Of a DNA stretch of 27,146 nt, positions 1,875-27,146 are shown piece by piece (positions within the stretch are counted from its first letter, which is position 1; each line of letters begins with the position of its first letter). Made by a program: the position numbers and the translations under genes. The notes under the pieces were generated by a model. It did not search any database. It saw nothing but the letters and a program-made list of their open reading frames with translations, and had not been told where the DNA came from. The stretch lies in the IMG/VR virus record IMGVR_UViG_3300045988_151853, one strand, 5' to 3'. The DNA comes from a virus (Duplodnaviria > Heunggongvirae > Uroviricota > Caudoviricetes).

Positions 1875-3604
1875 GCCGGAAATCTTACCCCAACGTAAAT
1901 GCTGCCAATCAGTATGCCCGTGATGTTGTGCGCGGAAAGATTGTGGCCTGCCAGTTTGTGATTCAGGCCTGCCAGCGCCATCTTGATGACCTGATGGCGG
2001 AAAAAAGTAAGTCGTTTCGTTACCGCTTCGACAAGGACCTGGCTGAACGGGCCGCCAAATTTATTCAGCTGTTGCCGCACACCAAGGGTGAGTGGGCATT
2101 CAAGAGGATGCCCATCACGCTGGAGCCGTGGCAGCTATTTGTGGTCTGCTGTGCGTTTGGCTGGGTCAATAAAGGGTCCCGGCTGCGCCGCTTCCGGGAG
2201 GTGTATACCGAAATCCCCCGTAAGAACGGCAAATCGGCAATCTCTGCCGGTGTTGCCCTGTATTGTTTTGCCTGTGATAACGAGTTTGGCGCGGAAGTGT
2301 ATTCCGGTGCCACGACAGAGAAACAGGCGTGGGAAGTCTTTCGCCCGGCGCGACTGATGTGTAAACGCACACCCATGCTGACGGAAGCGTTCGGGATTGA
2401 GGTTAACGCCTCAAACATGAATCGTCCGGAGGATGGCGCGCGGTTTGAACCGCTGATCGGTAACCCCGGTGATGGTTCATCACCCCACTGTGCGGTGGTG
2501 GATGAATATCACGAGCACGCCACCGATGCGCTTTACACCACGATGCTTACCGGGATGGGGGCGCGACGTCAGCCACTGATGTGGGCCATTACTACTGCCG
2601 GGTACAACATTGAGGGGCCGTGCTACGACAAGCGAAGGGAAGTTATCGAGATGCTCAACGGGTCGGTACCCAACGATGAACTGTTCGGGATCATCTATAC
2701 CGTTGACGAAGGCGATGACTGGACCGACCCGCAGGTGCTGGAAAAAGCTAACCCGAATATTGGCGTGTCGGTTTATCGCGAATTTTTGTTAAGTCAGCAG
2801 CAGCGTGCGAAAAATAACGCCCGTCTGGCAAACGTCTTTAAAACAAAACACCTCAATATCTGGGTGTCGGCGCGTTCGGCGTATTTCAACCTGGTGAGCT
2901 GGCAGAGCTGCGAGGATAAATCACTGACCCTTGAGCAGTTCGAGGGGCAGCCGTGCATTCTGGCCTTTGACCTGGCGCGTAAGCTGGATATGAACAGCAT
3001 GGCGCGACTTTATACCCGCGAGGTTGACGGTAAAACGCATTACTACAGTGTGGCCCCGCGTTTCTGGGTACCGTATGACACGGTGTACAGCGTCGAGAAA
3101 AATGAAGATCGCCGGACAGCCGAACGCTTTCAGAAATGGGTGGAAATGGGCGTCCTGACCGTTACCGATGGTGCAGAGGTGGATTATCGCTACATCCTCG
3201 AAGAGGCCAAAGCGGCGAACAAAATCAGCCCGGTCAGCGAGTCACCCATCGACCCCTTCGGGGCGACCGGGCTGTCACATGACCTTGCTGATGAAGACCT
3301 GAATCCCATCACCATCATTCAGAACTACACCAACATGTCCGACCCGATGAAAGAGCTGGAAGCGGCAATTGAATCGGGGCGCTTTCATCATGATGGCAAT
3401 CCCATCATGACCTGGTGTATCGGCAACGTGATCGGCAAAACCATTCCGGGTAACGATGATGTGGTGAAGCCCGTCAAAGAGCAGGCGGAAAACAAAATCG
3501 ATGGTGCAGTTGCGCTGATTATGGCGGTTGGCAGAGCCATGCTGTATGAGAAAGAAGACACGCTGTCCGACCACATTGAGTCCTACGGGATCCGCTCGCT
3601 TTAA
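1871..3604 (+). CDS. Terminase large subunit
   Basis: 577-aa ORF in the TerL position; size, position and ATPase/nuclease-type sequence are consistent with HK97-family large terminases. Confidence 0.9.
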
Positions 3605-18784: not shown

Positions 18785-19543
18785 ATGCATCGTATAGACA
18801 CGAAAACCGCGCAGAAGGATAAGTTTGGCGCGGGTAAAAACGGTTTTACCCGTGGTAACCCCCAGACTGGCACGCCTGCCACCGATCTGGATGATGACTA
18901 CTTTGACATGTTGCAGGAGGAGCTTTGCAGCGTTGTAGAGGCATCCGGTGCCAGTCTCGAGAAGGCGCGGCACGACCAGCTGCTTACCGCGCTTCGTGCG
19001 CTGCTGTTAAGCCGCAAGAATCCGTTTGGTGATATCAAATCGGACGGCACAGTACCAACGGCTCTCGAAAACCTTGGTTTGGGAGAAGGTTCGGCATTAC
19101 CCGTTGGCGTGCCTGTTCCGTGGCCTTCCACCACTCCGCCAACAGGCTGGCTGAAATGCAACGGTGCGTTTTTTTCTGCTGAAGAATACCCGGAACTGGC
19201 AAAGGCTTATCCGACAAATAAATTGCCTGATTTACGAGGTGAATTTATTCGTGGCTGGGATGACGGGCGTGATGTTGATAGTGGACGCGCTTTATTAAGC
19301 GAACAACTTGACGCTATGCAAAATGTTACGGGTTCTCTGATTGATAACACTATGGGGTCAGCTTCCTCAGCATCTGGAGTTTTTAATGTTGGTTCTAGTT
19401 CTGGGGTTAAATATGCCGCTCCATCAACTGGTAATGCATTTAGTTACTATGGTGTGACACTTGATTTATCCAGGAGTGCAAGAACATCAGCAGAAACAAG
19501 GCCACGTAACATTGCATTTAACTACATTGTAAGGGCAGCATGA
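18785..19543 (+). CDS. stf: Tail fibre protein: constant N-terminal part (to about 19075) fused to the variable C-terminal cassette expressed in the current orientation
   Basis: 252-aa ORF; an invertase crossover site lies inside it at 19062-19087 (codons ...LENLGLGE...); the part downstream of the site is low-GC and Ser/Gly-rich. Confidence 0.8.
19062..19087. repeat. Invertase crossover site, left (hix/gix/pix-like): CTCTCGAAAACC-TT-GGTTTGGGAGAA
   Basis: 12-bp half-sites flanking a TT core, closely resembling the Hin hixL pattern TTCTTGAAAACC-AA-GGTTTTTGATAA as I recall it; in inverted orientation to the site at 20887-20912. Confidence 0.75.
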
Positions 19544-20151
19544 TGACCACAAAAAAAATCACTTTGGATGAAAACGGATTTGCCACAGAGGCTGGCTTCA
19601 TTACCGTTTACAACTACAACGGAGAAACGCGGGAATATATTTCCACATCAACTGAATATCTTACGGTTGGCGTCGGTATCCCGGCATGTTCTTGTTTAGA
19701 TGCACCAGTTACACATAAGGCTGGTTATGCAATCTGCCGTTCTGCAGATTTTAACTCATGGGAATATGTGCCAGACCATCGCGGTGAAATCGTCTTTAGC
19801 ACCGAAACAGGAGAATCAAAAGAAATCACAGCTCCGGGTGATTACCCTGATAATACAACCACTATCGCCCCGTTAACACCATACGATAAATGGGATGGTG
19901 AGAAATGGGTGACGGATACCGATGCACAGCATAGCGCCGCAGTAGATGCAGCAGAAGCACAACGCCAGTCGCTGATTGATACTGCAATGGCTTCCATCAG
20001 TCTGATTCAACTGAAATTACGGGCCGGACGGAATCTGACGCAGGCAGAAACCAGCCGACTTAACACGGTGCTGGATTACATTGACGCGGTGACGGCAACA
20101 GATACCAGCACCGCGCCGGATGTCATCTGGCCTGAACTGCCGGAGGAGTAG
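19540..20151 (+). CDS. tfa: Tail fibre assembly protein (expressed orientation)
   Basis: 203-aa ORF overlapping the stf stop (ATGATGA); conserved Tfa C-terminus ...[16 protein letters not shown]. Confidence 0.85.
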
Positions 20152-20566
20152 GCCATTCAATATCTGGTGCACTGGAAGTATCGACCAGCTCCAGTGCGTC
20201 CAGATAATCCAGCCACAAATTATATTGCGCCAGTTCCTCACCTTTCAGACGACCAATAGCCGCTTTACCAACCCATTGTCTACTGTTCATATAATCGTTG
20301 GCCTGATTAATCAATTGCTGCTTTTTAGTTTCGGCTGATGCAATTTGTTCTTCACGTGTTGGTGGATGAATATCTGCCCATGCAGGCAGTCCATCTTCTC
20401 CAACACATCTGTATTTTCCTTCTGGTGGTGTGTCATAGAAATATTCCCTGAAAATTACTTCGTCTATATCAACACCTTTTTCTTCAGGCCATTCACCTTT
20501 TTCAACATAAAGAGACTGAAGTTCGTAAGGATATGCCAGGTTGTTTACGTACAGATATTTCATCAT
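20123..20566 (-). CDS. Alternative tail fibre assembly protein (silent orientation)
   Basis: 147-aa minus-strand ORF with Tfa-like C-terminus ...[19 protein letters not shown]; its 3' end overlaps the plus-strand tfa 3' end; its start overlaps the stop of the alternative fibre cassette. Confidence 0.8.
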   Translation of the reverse strand: MMKYLYVNNLAYPYELQSLYVEKGEWPEEKGVDIDEVIFREYFYDTPPEGKYRCVGEDGLPAWADIHPPTREEQIASAETKKQQLINQANDYMNSRQWVGKAAIGRLKGEELAQYNLWLDYLDALELVDTSSAPDIEWPTPPAVQAR

Positions 20567-20900
20567 TACCAGCCCTTAGCGAAAAACGCACCACCTTCAA
20601 GACCATAATTGCAGTGAGCTATGAAGCCGGTAGTGCTCCAGTTGGTCGCCCCCCACATATTCCCGCCCCCGAAACCACCATCGCACACAATTACAATGCC
20701 CGGTGTCTGTGTAAATGGAATCGGGAATGAAACATTGGCGGATACAGGCCCGTGTTCACCAGGAAAACTAATTCGTCCCCACTGTTCAATTGAACCATCT
20801 GGCATTTTTCGCCAGCCTGAACCTGATGCATATGATGACATATCAGGTATCTGATTTTCCCCTGTTCCCACATTCCGTTTTGCCGCTTCTCCCAAACCAA
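20566..20900 (-). CDS. Alternative tail-fibre C-terminal cassette (Sv'), promoterless and lacking its N-terminus in this orientation
   Basis: The minus-strand frame reads ...[18 protein letters not shown]...FAKGW*; the GLGE codons lie in the right crossover site in the same frame as GLGE of stf, so inversion would fuse the constant stf N-terminus to this cassette. Confidence 0.7.
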
Positions 20901-20966: not shown

Positions 20967-21523
20967 ATGCTTATTGGCTATGTTCGCGTATCAACAAATG
21001 ACCAGAACACCGATCTACAACGTAATGCGTTGAACTGTGCAGGATGTGAGCTGATTTTTGAAGACAAGATAAGCGGTACAAAGTCCGACAGACCAGGACT
21101 GAAAAAGCTGCTCAGGACATTATCGGCAGGTGACACGCTGGTGGTCTGGAAACTGGACCGACTGGGGCGCAGTATGCGGCATCTTGTCGTGCTGGTGGAA
21201 GAGTTGCGCGAACGTGGCGTTAATTTTCGCAGCCTGACGGATGCTATTGATACCAGCACACCAATGGGGCGCTTTTTCTTTCATGTGATGGGTGCCCTGG
21301 CTGAAATGGAGCGAGAGTTTATTGTCGAACGTACTAGGGCGGCTTTGCCGCAGCACGACAAGAAGGGAGGAACGGTGGGCGAAAGCCAAAGCTGACAGTA
21401 GAACAATGGGGGCAGGCTGGCAGGTTGATTGAATCGGGAATATATCAGCAGCAAGTCGCACTGATTTATGATCTGGGTATTTCAACGGTGTATAAAAAAT
21501 TCCCTGTAGCAAGTAAACCATAG
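20967..21523 (+). pseudogene. pin: Pin/Gin/Hin-family serine DNA invertase, interrupted by an apparent -1 frameshift near 21338-21342
   Basis: Frame 3 from ATG 20967 gives MLIGYVRVSTNDQNTDLQRNAL...FIVERTRA (resolvase/invertase catalytic domain with the catalytic Ser in YVRVST), then runs into unrelated residues and stops at 21395. Frame 2 (21338-21523) encodes the expected continuation GFAAARQEGRNGGRKPKLTVEQWGQAGRLIESG...ISTVYKKFP (HTH domain). AGGAGG RBS upstream of 20967. Confidence 0.75.
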
Positions 21524-21549: not shown

Positions 21550-22245
21550 TTATGCACTATTTTTAGGTCTTGTAACCCGAGGTGGGAGTTGTTTGGTTAT
21601 ATGTTCAAGTGATTTTTTGCCCAAGATAGTTCTTTGGACAAAACTTTCTATAGCTTCTAGCATTTGTTCGAACTCACTTTTATTCGGGCTCCAACTGCGA
21701 TGTGCGGCGGCGTTTCCTGCATCAATTACTGAAGATATAACGCATGCCTCAGTGTCGCCTATGACTCCATCTTGTTTTAATTTTTCAACTTTTTCACCAA
21801 GCGGCAAACCGGGGTGAATTTGTAACAGTTCAGCAGTTCGATCAAAAATCGTCCGTAAACCGATGGACGAAAGAATGAAATGGTCAGAAGTATATGAAGA
21901 ATACATTTCATTAAATATTTGAAAGAGCTGACGATCAACTGATTCAAGCTTGGATAACCATATCGGAGCTTGAAATGTTTCAGCGGCAGGATAGGTAGTG
22001 ATCATATCTATAGGCGTTTCTACAAATTCACCATCACGATATTCGTGGGTAGTATGCTCACTGAAGTGTTCGTTGTGGTGATAGAAGACAGTATCACAGC
22101 CATTGCATTGGAGTAGGTGATGGTAATGGTACCCATAAACTGGATATTGGGAATCCTCCCAGCTAGTGGTTAGCTTCCCATGCACAGTGCAGTTACGTAA
22201 CCCACCGCATGTAGGGCAAAGAGCCTTGAGTATTTCCTTTTTCAT
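21550..22245 (-). CDS. Zinc-ribbon protein with DUF4145-like C-terminal domain (candidate accessory/defence gene)
   Basis: 231-aa minus-strand ORF. N-terminus has CPTC...C and CNGC plus His-rich stretches (Zn-ribbon-like); C-terminus ...LGEKVEKLKQDGVIGDTEACVISSVIDAGNAAAHRSWSPNKSEFEQMLEAIESFVQ resembles the GNxxAH-containing DUF4145 helical domain as I recall it. Low GC; sits where e14 carries mcrA, next to pin. Confidence 0.5.
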   Translation of the reverse strand: MKKEILKALCPTCGGLRNCTVHGKLTTSWEDSQYPVYGYHYHHLLQCNGCDTVFYHHNEHFSEHTTHEYRDGEFVETPIDMITTYPAAETFQAPIWLSKLESVDRQLFQIFNEMYSSYTSDHFILSSIGLRTIFDRTAELLQIHPGLPLGEKVEKLKQDGVIGDTEACVISSVIDAGNAAAHRSWSPNKSEFEQMLEAIESFVQRTILGKKSLEHITKQLPPRVTRPKNSA

Positions 22246-24020: not shown

Positions 24021-24255
24021 GGGTTCCCATAAAACGTGGGAACCTGTGCGGGAACCTAACGCGAGAAAAATAGCCTGAAATGTTCAAAAATGCACGATAA
24101 TCATGAAACACAAAAAATTAATCAAACCAGCGTGATGCCTGAAAAAACTGGTGTTTACTGGAATTCTCGGTTTAGCATTGCTCCTATGCTCGATAGGATG
24201 TACCGTTTTTGAAAAACAAGTAGTTATACACTTTGTGGGAGCCTATTGGGAACCT
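24021..24255. repeat. Clustered 8-bp GGGAACCT repeats upstream of int (possible Int arm-type or operator sites)
   Basis: GGGTTCCC at 24021-24028, GGGAACCT at 24038-24045 and 24050-24057, GGGAGCCT at 24238-24245, GGGAACCT at 24248-24255: two clusters about 200 bp apart in an AT-rich intergenic region. Confidence 0.4.
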
Positions 24256-24334
24256 GTTATTCTTAGAAAGCATCATTTGCTCATCACTTCAATTGACCTA
24301 GCGTAGGTGAAGACTTTAAGATTGCAGGAGGCGG

Positions 24335-24916
24335 ATGCGGTTGCATTTGCCAGAGCTTGACGATGTTGTTTGGATGAAGGGTGTATTGATGCTAAATGTA
24401 AGGTTTGATTCAGAAAAGGCTTTAGAGGCCATTCTGTACGTCGCCTCTAAAGCACCGATCCCAGATATCTATCATGTCGGAAAAATTCTTTATTATGCTG
24501 ACAGGTTTCACCTTGAAAGTTTTGGACGCCTCATAACGGGCGATCACTATAACGCTATGAAGGATGGGCCTGTAGCAAGCAACACATACGATATTATAAA
24601 AATTGCTCGTGGAGATGGACGTTACATTCCTAATGGTTGTGATGTCGATTCTGTGCGAAAAGCATTTTCTGTATCAGGTATGATGATTGTGCCGAGCCGT
24701 GAAGCTGATGAAGACTTTTTTAGTGACTCAGATTTAGAGTGTATTGATAAGTCTATCGCGATGCTTGGAAACATGTCCTTTGAAGCTATCAGAACCATGA
24801 GCCATGACGCGGCATGGGAACAGGCAGATCACAATGGTGAGATGTCTTTGGAATCGATAGTTGCACAGCTAAAAAATAGCAAATTAATACTGGATTATCT
24901 GAAGAACGGATATTGA
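24335..24916 (+). CDS. Panacea-domain (DUF4065, SocA/GepA-like) protein, candidate antitoxin
   Basis: 193-aa product with ...EAILYVASKAPIPDIYHVGKILYYADRFHLESFGRLITGDHYNAMKDGPVASNTY... and ...SFEAIRTMSHDAAWEQA..., matching the Panacea/DUF4065 pattern (KLxYYAD ... GPV ... THxxxxW) as I recall it. AGGAGG RBS; the start could instead be ATG 24374 or 24389. Confidence 0.65.
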   Translation: MRLHLPELDDVVWMKGVLMLNVRFDSEKALEAILYVASKAPIPDIYHVGKILYYADRFHLESFGRLITGDHYNAMKDGPVASNTYDIIKIARGDGRYIPNGCDVDSVRKAFSVSGMMIVPSREADEDFFSDSDLECIDKSIAMLGNMSFEAIRTMSHDAAWEQADHNGEMSLESIVAQLKNSKLILDYLKNGY

Positions 24917-24921
24917 TACTT

Positions 24922-25383
24922 ATGCTGGGTGATTGTTTCCCTCCTGATTTTAAGGCTAATTTTAGTCGTGAAAGAGGTATATCACCCGGTGATGTATTGT
25001 ATCTTCATTGTGATTTTACGACCCCACCTAAAGTAAAATATATGGTGGTTGTTTGCTGTGAACCTCTTTTAGTTCTTCTAATAAATTCAGATATAAATGA
25101 ATTTATTAAGAGAAACAATGATCTTATGGCTTGTCAGGTCGAAATTAATAGAGAGGACCATGATTTTCTTAAATGGGACTCATTTGTTAATTGCATTGAG
25201 GCTCATGCTGCTTTCGATCTTGAAATTATTAAAGAGAAAATAGCCATCCAATATGGCGACGTGCTAAAAGGTCGCATTACAGATCATTGTATGAGACAAG
25301 TTCGATGTGCAGTTGAGATATCTAAAATCATGGTTAAACGGCATAAAAAACTGATACTCGCTGCTCTTCAACATTATGAATAA
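24922..25383 (+). CDS. Hypothetical protein overlapping or abutting the Panacea-domain gene (candidate toxin/effector partner)
   Basis: 153-aa ORF from ATG 24922 (the track lists TTG 24913, overlapping the upstream stop by 4 nt); AT-rich; I recognise no family; followed by a bidirectional terminator. Confidence 0.45.
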   Translation: MLGDCFPPDFKANFSRERGISPGDVLYLHCDFTTPPKVKYMVVVCCEPLLVLLINSDINEFIKRNNDLMACQVEINREDHDFLKWDSFVNCIEAHAAFDLEIIKEKIAIQYGDVLKGRITDHCMRQVRCAVEISKIMVKRHKKLILAALQHYE

Positions 25384-25403
25384 ACCCACCTTTGGATGGG
25401 TTT
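25382..25403. terminator. Bidirectional stem-loop terminator between convergent genes
   Basis: AAACCCA (25382-25388), 8-nt loop, TGGGTTT (25397-25403), placed between the stop of the plus-strand gene (25383) and the stop of the minus-strand PrtN-like gene (25417). Confidence 0.5.
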
Positions 25404-25416
25404 ATTCATATTCTAT

Positions 25417-25689
25417 TTAAATGAGCCTTTGTTTATGGGTTCTGACCCTTTCCCACTCAGCACGCCCTTCTTCTCGCCTTTTGTCTATGTATTCCGCAAG
25501 ATCCTGAATATTGATGCAACGTTTTGCTTTTTGTGATGTGCCGATGCGATATGTTGGAACGGGCAACTTACAAGCGTTTGCTTTTGCTTCTGCCGTGGCT
25601 GGACTCATGCCAAAGTACTTTTGGCTAACTGCTGAGAGTTCAATGTTAGGGGTATTGAATTCAGCCATCAGTAAAAACAAGGTGTTCAT
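25417..25689 (-). CDS. PrtN-family / excisionase-like DNA-binding protein
   Basis: Product MNTLFLLMAEFNTPNIELSAVSQKYFGMSP...LPVPTYRIGTSQKAKRCINIQDLAEYIDKRREEG resembles the pyocin activator PrtN family (MNTVFLLMAQY...) found next to int in lambdoid prophages. ATG 25689 with GGAG 6 nt upstream is preferred over the listed GTG 25716. Confidence 0.6.
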   Translation of the reverse strand: MNTLFLLMAEFNTPNIELSAVSQKYFGMSPATAEAKANACKLPVPTYRIGTSQKAKRCINIQDLAEYIDKRREEGRAEWERVRTHKQRLI

Positions 25690-25725
25690 AATTTTCTCCA
25701 TCAAAACCGGCTGCACCCGGGAAAA

Positions 25726-26298
25726 TCATAATTCTGTGCTGGTGGCAGGAATTAATTTCTGCCAGATAGCGGAAACATATTTTGCCTGATGACGGGCATC
25801 GGCCAGGGCGTTGTGCCGTTCGCCATCGAAAGGCATGTCCATTTTGGGGGCGAATCCGATGGAACGCCCAAGCGTAACGATCGTGCGTACATCGTGGTCA
25901 TTCCAGTATGCCCACGGGCAGATTTGTCCTGCTCGCTCATAAGCTCCACGTAAAATTACGTTGTCGAAGGTGGCCCCGTTACCCCAGACTTTTAAATATT
26001 TTGTATTGTCTGCATGCTGATTAATGAAATGGCTCAGTTCAGAGAGTGCATCGCTGATCGACAAAGTATCATCAATACAGATTGCAGCTCGTGCTTCAGG
26101 GCTCTGTTTCAACCACCACAGGATGGTATCGCCGTCAGGTGTGGCCCCTTGCTCCATAGCACTTTCCAGGCTGACAACCGTATAGAATTCTTGTCCGATG
26201 TCTCCGGTTTCTGGGGTGAAGAACACCGCGCCAATGGAAACGATTGGTGCATCCTTATTTTTCCCCATCGTCTCAAGGTCGATCATTAAGTTGTTCAT
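25726..26298 (-). CDS. DEDDh-type 3'-5' exonuclease (DnaQ-like fold)
   Basis: 190-aa product with Exo I motif MIDLETMG near the N-terminus and H-x4-D (HNALADA) near the C-terminus. Confidence 0.7.
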   Translation of the reverse strand: MNNLMIDLETMGKNKDAPIVSIGAVFFTPETGDIGQEFYTVVSLESAMEQGATPDGDTILWWLKQSPEARAAICIDDTLSISDALSELSHFINQHADNTKYLKVWGNGATFDNVILRGAYERAGQICPWAYWNDHDVRTIVTLGRSIGFAPKMDMPFDGERHNALADARHQAKYVSAIWQKLIPATSTEL

Positions 26299-26609
26299 TA
26301 CTTCACCTCCTGCGTTTCTTTGCTGCTGTGAATTCGCCAGTTACCGACGCCTTCCCATTCAAACTGGCGGTTACTAATTCGCGTCCAGCCCCTGCCGAAA
26401 AGCAAATCCAGATACCAGTATTTTAAAGTTCTGATAATTGCTCTTACAGTTGGTTTGCATCCAGAAGTCTTTGATGCGCAAATAAAGCACCGAGTTATGC
26501 TCATGGCCTCTACAAAAGGCCAGATAAACCAAACCCAGATGCAAAGAGCCACGAACAACATGAGCGCAATGTTAGCCACTAAGCCAGACCAGTACAGATA
26601 ATTGCTCAC
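26298..26609 (-). CDS. Hypothetical membrane protein
   Basis: 103-aa ORF with hydrophobic N-terminal segments; translationally coupled to the exonuclease gene. Confidence 0.4.
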   Translation of the reverse strand: MSNYLYWSGLVANIALMLFVALCIWVWFIWPFVEAMSITRCFICASKTSGCKPTVRAIIRTLKYWYLDLLFGRGWTRISNRQFEWEGVGNWRIHSSKETQEVK

Positions 26610-26845
26610 TGGTTGCCTCCTTTACGGATCTGCGCTGCGATGCGCGAAAAAAAAGACTCCCGCGTATGACTGTTAAGAGCTGGCGCGAACGCTGCGTTAA
26701 GAACGGCAGCATCACAGCCGTCATCGATATAGAGCGCAATTTTTTTCTCCAGGCGCGCTTTGGCTTCCTGCAACTGCATACCCCGGCACGCACGCGGGAT
26801 ATACTCAGCAATTTGAGCGATAGATTTTTCGTTCTGTTTAAACAT
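26606..26845 (-). CDS. Hypothetical small early protein
   Basis: 79-aa ORF, overlapping start/stop with neighbours in the same minus-strand operon; preferred over the Arg-rich alternative frame 26572-26958. Confidence 0.4.
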   Translation of the reverse strand: MFKQNEKSIAQIAEYIPRACRGMQLQEAKARLEKKIALYIDDGCDAAVLNAAFAPALNSHTRESFFSRIAAQIRKGGNQ

Positions 26846-27041
26846 GCTTCACCTCGATAGGCTTGATGCTGTCGATCAGCAGTCGGCGGCGCGTATTTTC
26901 TGCAAAGTGGCGGCGTCCGGTTTCTTTGTGGTAAAACTCGTTTTTTCCGACGACCCACATCCGCTTTGTCTGGTGCAGTTTTTTTACCTGCGGACCGTCT
27001 CGGGTGATAACAATTCCTGTATGAGTTTTTATCACGCTCAT
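26838..27041 (-). CDS. Hypothetical small early protein
   Basis: 67-aa basic ORF at the head of the minus-strand gene string. Confidence 0.4.
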   Translation of the reverse strand: MSVIKTHTGIVITRDGPQVKKLHQTKRMWVVGKNEFYHKETGRRHFAENTRRRLLIDSIKPIEVKHV

Positions 27042-27146
27042 TTCTTATTCTCCGGTGCTTTTGGCATTACTGCCCAGTGAGTGATATTGACGTTTTCAAG
27101 GTCCCCGACCTGAAATGTCCACTGCCATTCTCCGGTTTCTTTTTGT

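Follow-up and report, generated by a model that had tools for sequence, protein, structure and literature searches.

A frameshifted Pin-type invertase gene beside an invertible tail-fibre segment in a dusA-integrating phage

The tail-fibre module and its invertase gene

The window analysed here is a stretch of 27,146 nt that holds 27 kb of the excised form of a phage, with the host genome lying outside it. The element is a complete phage that integrates into dusA; its early genes are lambdoid, its head is of the HK97 type and its contractile tail is Mu-like. At positions 24090–24193, about 104 nt of the dusA 5′ end follow the integrase gene and form an attP-type junction, and positions 24194–27146 carry the far, early-gene end of the prophage, with Panacea-domain, 3′–5′ exonuclease and PrtN-like genes. 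The same early-gene end lies about 34–40 kb away in lysogens. The attP-type junction indicates that the window represents a phage in excised or circular form, as is the isolated relative SKA5, rather than an integrated prophage. This points to a phage that remains active although its invertase is broken.

Table 1. Features of the tail-fibre module and the pin gene in the window
Feature	Position	Strand	Basis and remarks
Tail fibre now expressed, 252 aa	18785..19543	+	Constant N-terminal 101 aa and variable C-terminus with Collar domain
Left 26-bp crossover site, CTCTCGAAAACC TT GGTTTGGGAGAA	19062..19087		Inside the tail-fibre gene; same as the left site of the K-12 e14 P segment
Invertible segment, 1825 bp from site centre to site centre	19075..20899		Two alternative tail-fibre C-termini and two assembly chaperones
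Tail-fibre assembly protein of the current orientation, 203 aa, TfaE-like	19540..20151	+	PF02413
Alternative tail-fibre assembly protein, 147 aa	20123..20566	-	Pfam and in-silico inversion; expression expected after inversion
Alternative promoterless tail-fibre C-terminus, gp53-like C-terminal domain	20566..20899	-	Pfam and in-silico inversion
Right 26-bp crossover site, TTCTCCCAAACC AA CGTTTATGAAAA	20887..20912		55 nt upstream of the pin ATG; same as the right e14 site
Broken pin, first reading frame	20967..21395	+	Pfam PF00239 Resolvase (E 5e-49) and alignment to Gin 3UJ3; expected product 142 aa
Putative recombinational enhancer	20989..21051		Two degenerate Fis consensus matches in the pin 5′ coding region; enhancer role inferred
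Frameshift site AGGGCGG	21336..21342	+	Intact alleles AGGGCGGG; one G of GGG missing, GG left at 21341–21342
C-terminal end of helix E, linker and HTH_7 DNA-binding domain	21338..21523	+	Pfam PF02796 HTH_7 (E 2e-11); frame intact but displaced

Upstream of pin, two inverted 26-bp sites with the same central dinucleotide (AA/TT) flank the invertible segment (Table 1), and the inverted repeats share 20 nt at 95% identity. Inversion in silico at the site centres gave an in-frame fibre of 207 aa, whose first 101 residues are those of the present fibre and which is followed by the 147-aa assembly protein. The constant 5′ part of the gene can therefore be fused in frame to either end, as in the tail-fibre host-range switches of the Mu G, P1 C and e14 P type. 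The 3′ ends of the two convergent assembly genes have 29 nt in common (20123–20151), and an 18-nt inverted repeat, 83% complementary (20070–20087 and 20196–20213), is situated in the C-terminal coding regions near both 3′ ends.

The first reading frame of pin begins with an ATG at 20967, with AGGAGG standing just 5′ of it. It encodes 125 Pin-like residues (MLIGYVRVSTNDQ...ERTRA), comprising the serine-recombinase catalytic domain, with the motifs YVRVSTNDQ and DRLGRS, and most of helix E; unrelated residues (ALPQHDKKGGTVGESQS) follow up to a stop codon at 21393–21395. The rest of the protein is found in a displaced frame, GFAAARQEGRNGGRKPKLTVEQW...YKKFPVASKP (GFAAARQEGRNGGRKPKL...YKKFPVASKP), which ends with a stop codon at 21521–21523 and for which the sequence contains no start codon of its own. 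As the HTH_7 domain is coded in another frame and not on the same polypeptide as the catalytic domain, the locus is classed as a pseudogene of the Gin/Hin/Pin/Cin group and not as a working member.

The position of the break was determined by alignment of 20 pin alleles, that of the window and 19 from complete E. coli genomes (carriers of the break, n = 14). The sole length difference between the window and the intact alleles was one G (AGGGC-GGC against AGGGCGGGC), corresponding to a change from AGGGCGGGC to AGGGCGGC at the frameshift site. The break falls within helix E, ahead of the DNA-binding domain. Addition of one G in silico produced a protein of 185 aa in which Pfam recognized both domains, Resolvase and HTH_7, and which aligned without gaps to Gin of phage Mu (PDB 3UJ3, 4M6F) over residues 1–181 (E 1e-90). 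An earlier note on this DNA had proposed a Pin-type invertase split by a −1 frameshift between its catalytic and HTH domains, with the HTH domain intact in the other frame and the canonical junction regained on return of one G, and had placed the two crossover sites where they are listed in Table 1. Pfam, the repeat search and the alignments of alleles, sites and Gin all agree with this description, as they do with the end it gave for the catalytic frame (21395); the unrelated residues before that end, put at about 20, number 17.

Invertase genes carry a Fis-bound enhancer in their 5′ coding region. Two Fis-like motifs, with centres at 20996 and 21044 and 48 bp apart, were identified within the first 90 nt of pin, the motif being a weak one, with 2.4 matches to be expected in 370 nt. 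The functional pinE gene of e14 has conserved both, and their position, which fits the known place of invertase enhancers, is suggestive of a putative element of this kind. As far as can be read from the sequence, the cis parts of the switch are intact, namely both sites, two fibre ends that join in frame and have a chaperone each, and the pin 5′ coding region.

Between pin and a DinI-like gene, positions 21550–22245 (minus strand) encode a protein of 231 aa that combines a Cys-rich N-terminus (CPTCGG...CNGCD) with a DUF4145 domain. Nearly all related prophages have this protein (WP_001514810.1), those with an intact pin as well as those with a broken one. PADLOC gave no match for the neighbouring DUF4145 and DinI-like genes.

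The broken allele and its expected product

With a 54-nt probe over the deletion, 20 complete E. coli genomes gave a perfect match and 14 more matched apart from one extra base. Most complete E. coli genomes with this pin lineage thus have the broken gene (20/34, against 14/34 intact), and IMG/VR contigs of the lineage are divided likewise, nine having the deletion and four being intact. Carriers come from many countries, hosts and laboratories. All 14 of the aligned carriers showed an identical deletion, and the PGAP label was 'recombinase family protein, frameshifted' in each of the 19 carriers opened. The exact configuration of the window was absent from complete RefSeq E. coli genomes; the nearest is IMG/VR contig 3300045988_158707, whose segment is 99.6% identical and has the same orientation. 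None of the isolates in the phage collection has this pin allele, the closest being SKA5, with a different, intact invertase. By comparison of these sequences, the one-G deletion is genuine and inherited, and the phage's own Pin/Gin-type invertase is a pseudogene. Frameshifted pin is already annotated in related prophages, and the case is of a known kind.

Judged from its sequence, pin is most likely dead. The 142-aa product is without the end of helix E and the site-binding HTH domain and, by inference from known serine invertases, should be unable to invert DNA alone.

Retention of an active invertase could nevertheless be imagined if the frameshift were bypassed, by programmed −1 ribosomal frameshifting or transcriptional slippage, or if the two halves of the protein cooperated. 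A −1 slip after GCG would recreate exactly the sequence R-A-G-F, both parts are free of stop codons and of any second indel in the aligned carriers, and the broken allele is the commoner one. However, the site (ACT AGG GCG GCT) contains no slippery heptamer of the form X XXY YYZ, and re-pairing of tRNA-Ala on GGC would leave two mismatched positions. A long homopolymer at which transcription might slip is also absent, as is a start codon for the HTH frame, and the shifted arrangement is not lineage-wide, the unshifted gene being kept in 14 of the 34 genomes. The lack of further indels would fit a young mutation equally well.

Conserved and catalytic residues have, moreover, changed in carriers, in keeping with relaxed constraint. 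The start codon has become ATA in L014 and L030, and substitutions include R68G in the active-site motif DRLGRS (L019 and L020), D12G (L021 and L022) and a G-to-D change in the HTH domain (L027). In L023 (NZ_CP061764.1, strain 730V1; 2244–3510), the frameshifted pin lacks its first 47 nt and the entire tail module is missing, both removed by an IS26, and in L008 the invertible segment is deleted. Extra damage at conserved pin residues was seen in carriers only, and in none of the intact alleles. Bypass of the frameshift, or cooperation of the halves, is therefore considered very unlikely, and a dead gene remains the preferred reading.

Inversion of the segment in lysogens with the broken gene

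Two lysogens from Switzerland, strain 20KM0223N from a dog (L038) and strain MEI148-20EC from soil (L039), both have the broken pin and the same segment, in opposite orientations; the records of this pair are NZ_CP151045.1 and NZ_CM149554.1. The two were compared first over 6,661 bp and then over 40,661 bp, the latter corresponding to half the prophage and 17 kb of chromosome. Once the segment had been inverted between the central dinucleotides, they agreed exactly over both lengths, with identity at 40,661/40,661 positions. The inner half-site contains a SNP (TTCTCCAAAACC) that switches sides when the segment does and that, together with the first difference between the outer half-sites, limits the exchange to about 8–9 bp holding the central AA. 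Because the frameshift is found in distant strains, it must be far older than the split between these two, and the inversion came when pin was already broken. From the sequences, the inversion is assigned to site-specific recombination after the frameshift. The earlier note had reasoned that an inactive invertase would leave the tail-fibre segment locked unless another invertase acted in trans; the conditional holds, but in nature the segment is not locked, as it has flipped between these strains.

Homologous recombination dependent on RecA, acting on the short inverted repeats, might be put in place of an invertase, given the 20 nt that they share at 95% identity. Homology of 12–20 bp is, however, a very poor substrate for RecA, the exchange is confined to the few base pairs around the central AA, and the sites are exactly those of the e14 invertase. 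We regard this origin of the inversion as highly unlikely, and site-specific recombination is retained.

Precise inversion of the segment in a lineage with a broken pin points to another enzyme, and analogy with related systems suggests that the segment was most likely inverted in trans by a resident Pin-family invertase. Among these enzymes, Gin, Pin, Cin and Hin reportedly substitute for one another (van de Putte 1984; Enomoto 1983). Two further pin-like places, which are candidate helpers, were found in each of the 20KM0223N and MEI148-20EC genomes, and a pin homologue occurs in 2121 of 5426 E. coli genomes. Kirigo et al. (NAR 2025, PMC12529663), who also cite the older studies on exchange among the invertases, showed that the P segment of e14 is inverted by PinQ and PinR, which belong to the Qin and Rac prophages, and they reported it to be locked in a pinE deletion mutant. 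Deletion of pinE would presumably also take out the presumed cis enhancer, which the frameshift keeps. Thus a helper from elsewhere in the lysogen, whether PinE, PinQ/PinR or a Gin-, Cin- or Hin-like enzyme, could still flip the segment at its kept sites. In a host with no helper the fibre would stay as it is, here the 252-aa Collar-domain fibre with the 203-aa Tfa.

Over all carriers examined, the two orientations were found 13 and 12 times. Most cassettes differ, so that only the identical pair from Switzerland is decisive for flipping. An all-against-all comparison of the 30-odd invertible segments gave this one pair of identical segments in opposite orientation; the other inverted matches are mosaics of 96–98% identity and are uninformative on timing. 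Orientations were divided 8 to 1 among carriers with a single pin and 4 to 4 among those with several (Fisher one-sided p about 0.11, for carriers that are not phylogenetically independent). The excess among single-pin carriers is in the direction that a trans model predicts and is not significant. The proposition that single-pin carriers are all stuck in one orientation was rejected, since the trend is not significant and strain LWY6 (L021) is a counter-example: it has no second chromosomal pin-like place, and its segment has the window's orientation, opposite to that of the other eight single-pin carriers.

The best joint explanation, which we hold to be very probable, is a genuine pin pseudogene beside an intact cis switch, with the segment still invertible by a related invertase in trans.

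Origin of the deletion and comparison with known systems

In every aligned carrier the deletion is accompanied by 408C and 446G (alignment columns), the latter being a change from E to G (EQWEQAG to EQWGQAG), and the 5′ third of pin is a mosaic common to intact alleles. The linked SNPs and the mosaic 5′ block argue for a single origin followed by recombination, and against repeated mutation or slippage. The mutation would have arisen once and spread onto different tail-fibre cassettes by recombination among dusA-integrating, e14-like phages.

A recurrent hotspot mutation, or a reversible phase-variation switch of the invertase, would account for the deletion being found on pin alleles up to about 4% apart and beside different tail-fibre cassettes. 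That divergence, however, lies in the mosaic 5′ block found in intact alleles too, and the deletion always came with the same flanking SNPs in the aligned carriers. Contingency genes have a long homopolymer or short tandem repeat, whereas the run here is GG or GGG only, and two or three bases are far fewer than in known slippage-prone tracts. Recurrence or reversibility is thus highly improbable, and a single origin is preferred. A homopolymer miscall or assembly error in one record with an intact real gene would fit a one-base length change in a G run, an error type of some platforms, and a homopolymer sequencing error was the alternative offered in the earlier note. Such an error is refuted for the allele as a class and extremely unlikely overall, because the run is only GG against GGG with no long homopolymer, the identical deletion recurs in 20 independent complete genomes and nine IMG/VR contigs, and the aligned carriers all have the same SNPs at columns 408 and 446.

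Two amino-acid changes were seen in broken alleles only. At window position 21318 (column 352), L118F in helix E changes MERELIV to MEREFIV in the window's group, and the E-to-G change at window position 21411 (column 446) is present in all aligned carriers. Either change could reflect relaxed constraint once pin was frameshifted, or could have hitch-hiked with the deletion. PGAP marks the expressed tail-fibre gene as incomplete, with the C-terminus missing, in several carriers among L007, L014 and L017–L021, and L008 and L020 lack either the left crossover site or the entire segment. A different, intact 'recombinase family protein' gene lies just upstream of the IS26 deletion in L023, on the other strand. 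Part of this prophage family is decaying.

The broken pin may also be favoured, and not represent mere decay, either because it hands the switch to the invertases of co-resident prophages or because the 142-aa product damps inversion. This idea is prompted by the predominance of the broken form (20/34 genomes, 9/13 IMG/VR contigs) and by the many fibre cassettes beside it, and we consider it unlikely. If it were true, the phage would keep sites and enhancer and drop the enzyme, and its host-range switch would be run by, for example, PinQ, which is reportedly induced by phage attack; the 142-aa product, with its catalytic domain only, could pair with co-resident invertases and lower inversion.

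For annotation, the gene is best described as an invertase pseudogene with a frameshift, which is how RefSeq treats it in the related prophages inspected, and should not be 'corrected' as a sequencing error. The locus would be a small natural case, of a kind known from genetics, of an invertible tail-fibre switch that outlives its own recombinase, because its sites are common to other Pin-family enzymes in E. coli. The host range of the phage then depends on the other prophages in the same lysogen. No new question is opened by this; 'locked' becomes 'dependent on a helper', and the single point of mild interest is that broken alleles outnumber intact ones.

The closest known system is the P segment of e14 with its invertase PinE in E. 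coli K-12. The order of the module is the same (ymfQ, stf, tfa, tfa′, stf′, pin), and both 26-bp sites of the window are base-for-base identical to those of e14 (L040; 3279–3304 and 5106–5131). The repeat arms of the window are 1797 nt apart, the length given for the P segment in PMC12529663. The restored window protein is identical to PinE at 156/185 positions, with five differences in the first 125 residues, and the same two Fis-like motifs are found in the 5′ coding region of pinE. In the window, however, the frame of the invertase is broken and its HTH part is more diverged; the gene after pin is the DUF4145 gene, where e14 has mcrA. The element is a complete phage that integrates at dusA, in excised form, whereas e14 is a decayed remnant at icd. 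From these sequences, e14 seems to be related to this intact type of phage and to have decayed.

Likeness extends to the G segment of Mu with its invertase Gin, and to Cin of P1 and Hin of Salmonella, where a serine invertase of about 185–190 aa stands beside a tail-fibre switch. The restored window protein is gapless on Gin residues 1–181, and the baseplate and tail genes of the phage are Mu-like, but the segment of the window is shorter than that of Mu, its fibres are much shorter and its invertase is a pseudogene. The action of PinQ and PinR on e14 (PMC12529663) offers the parallel for inversion in trans: there, a tail-fibre segment is flipped by invertases coded elsewhere, as would be the case for the window, although in K-12 the local PinE is intact.
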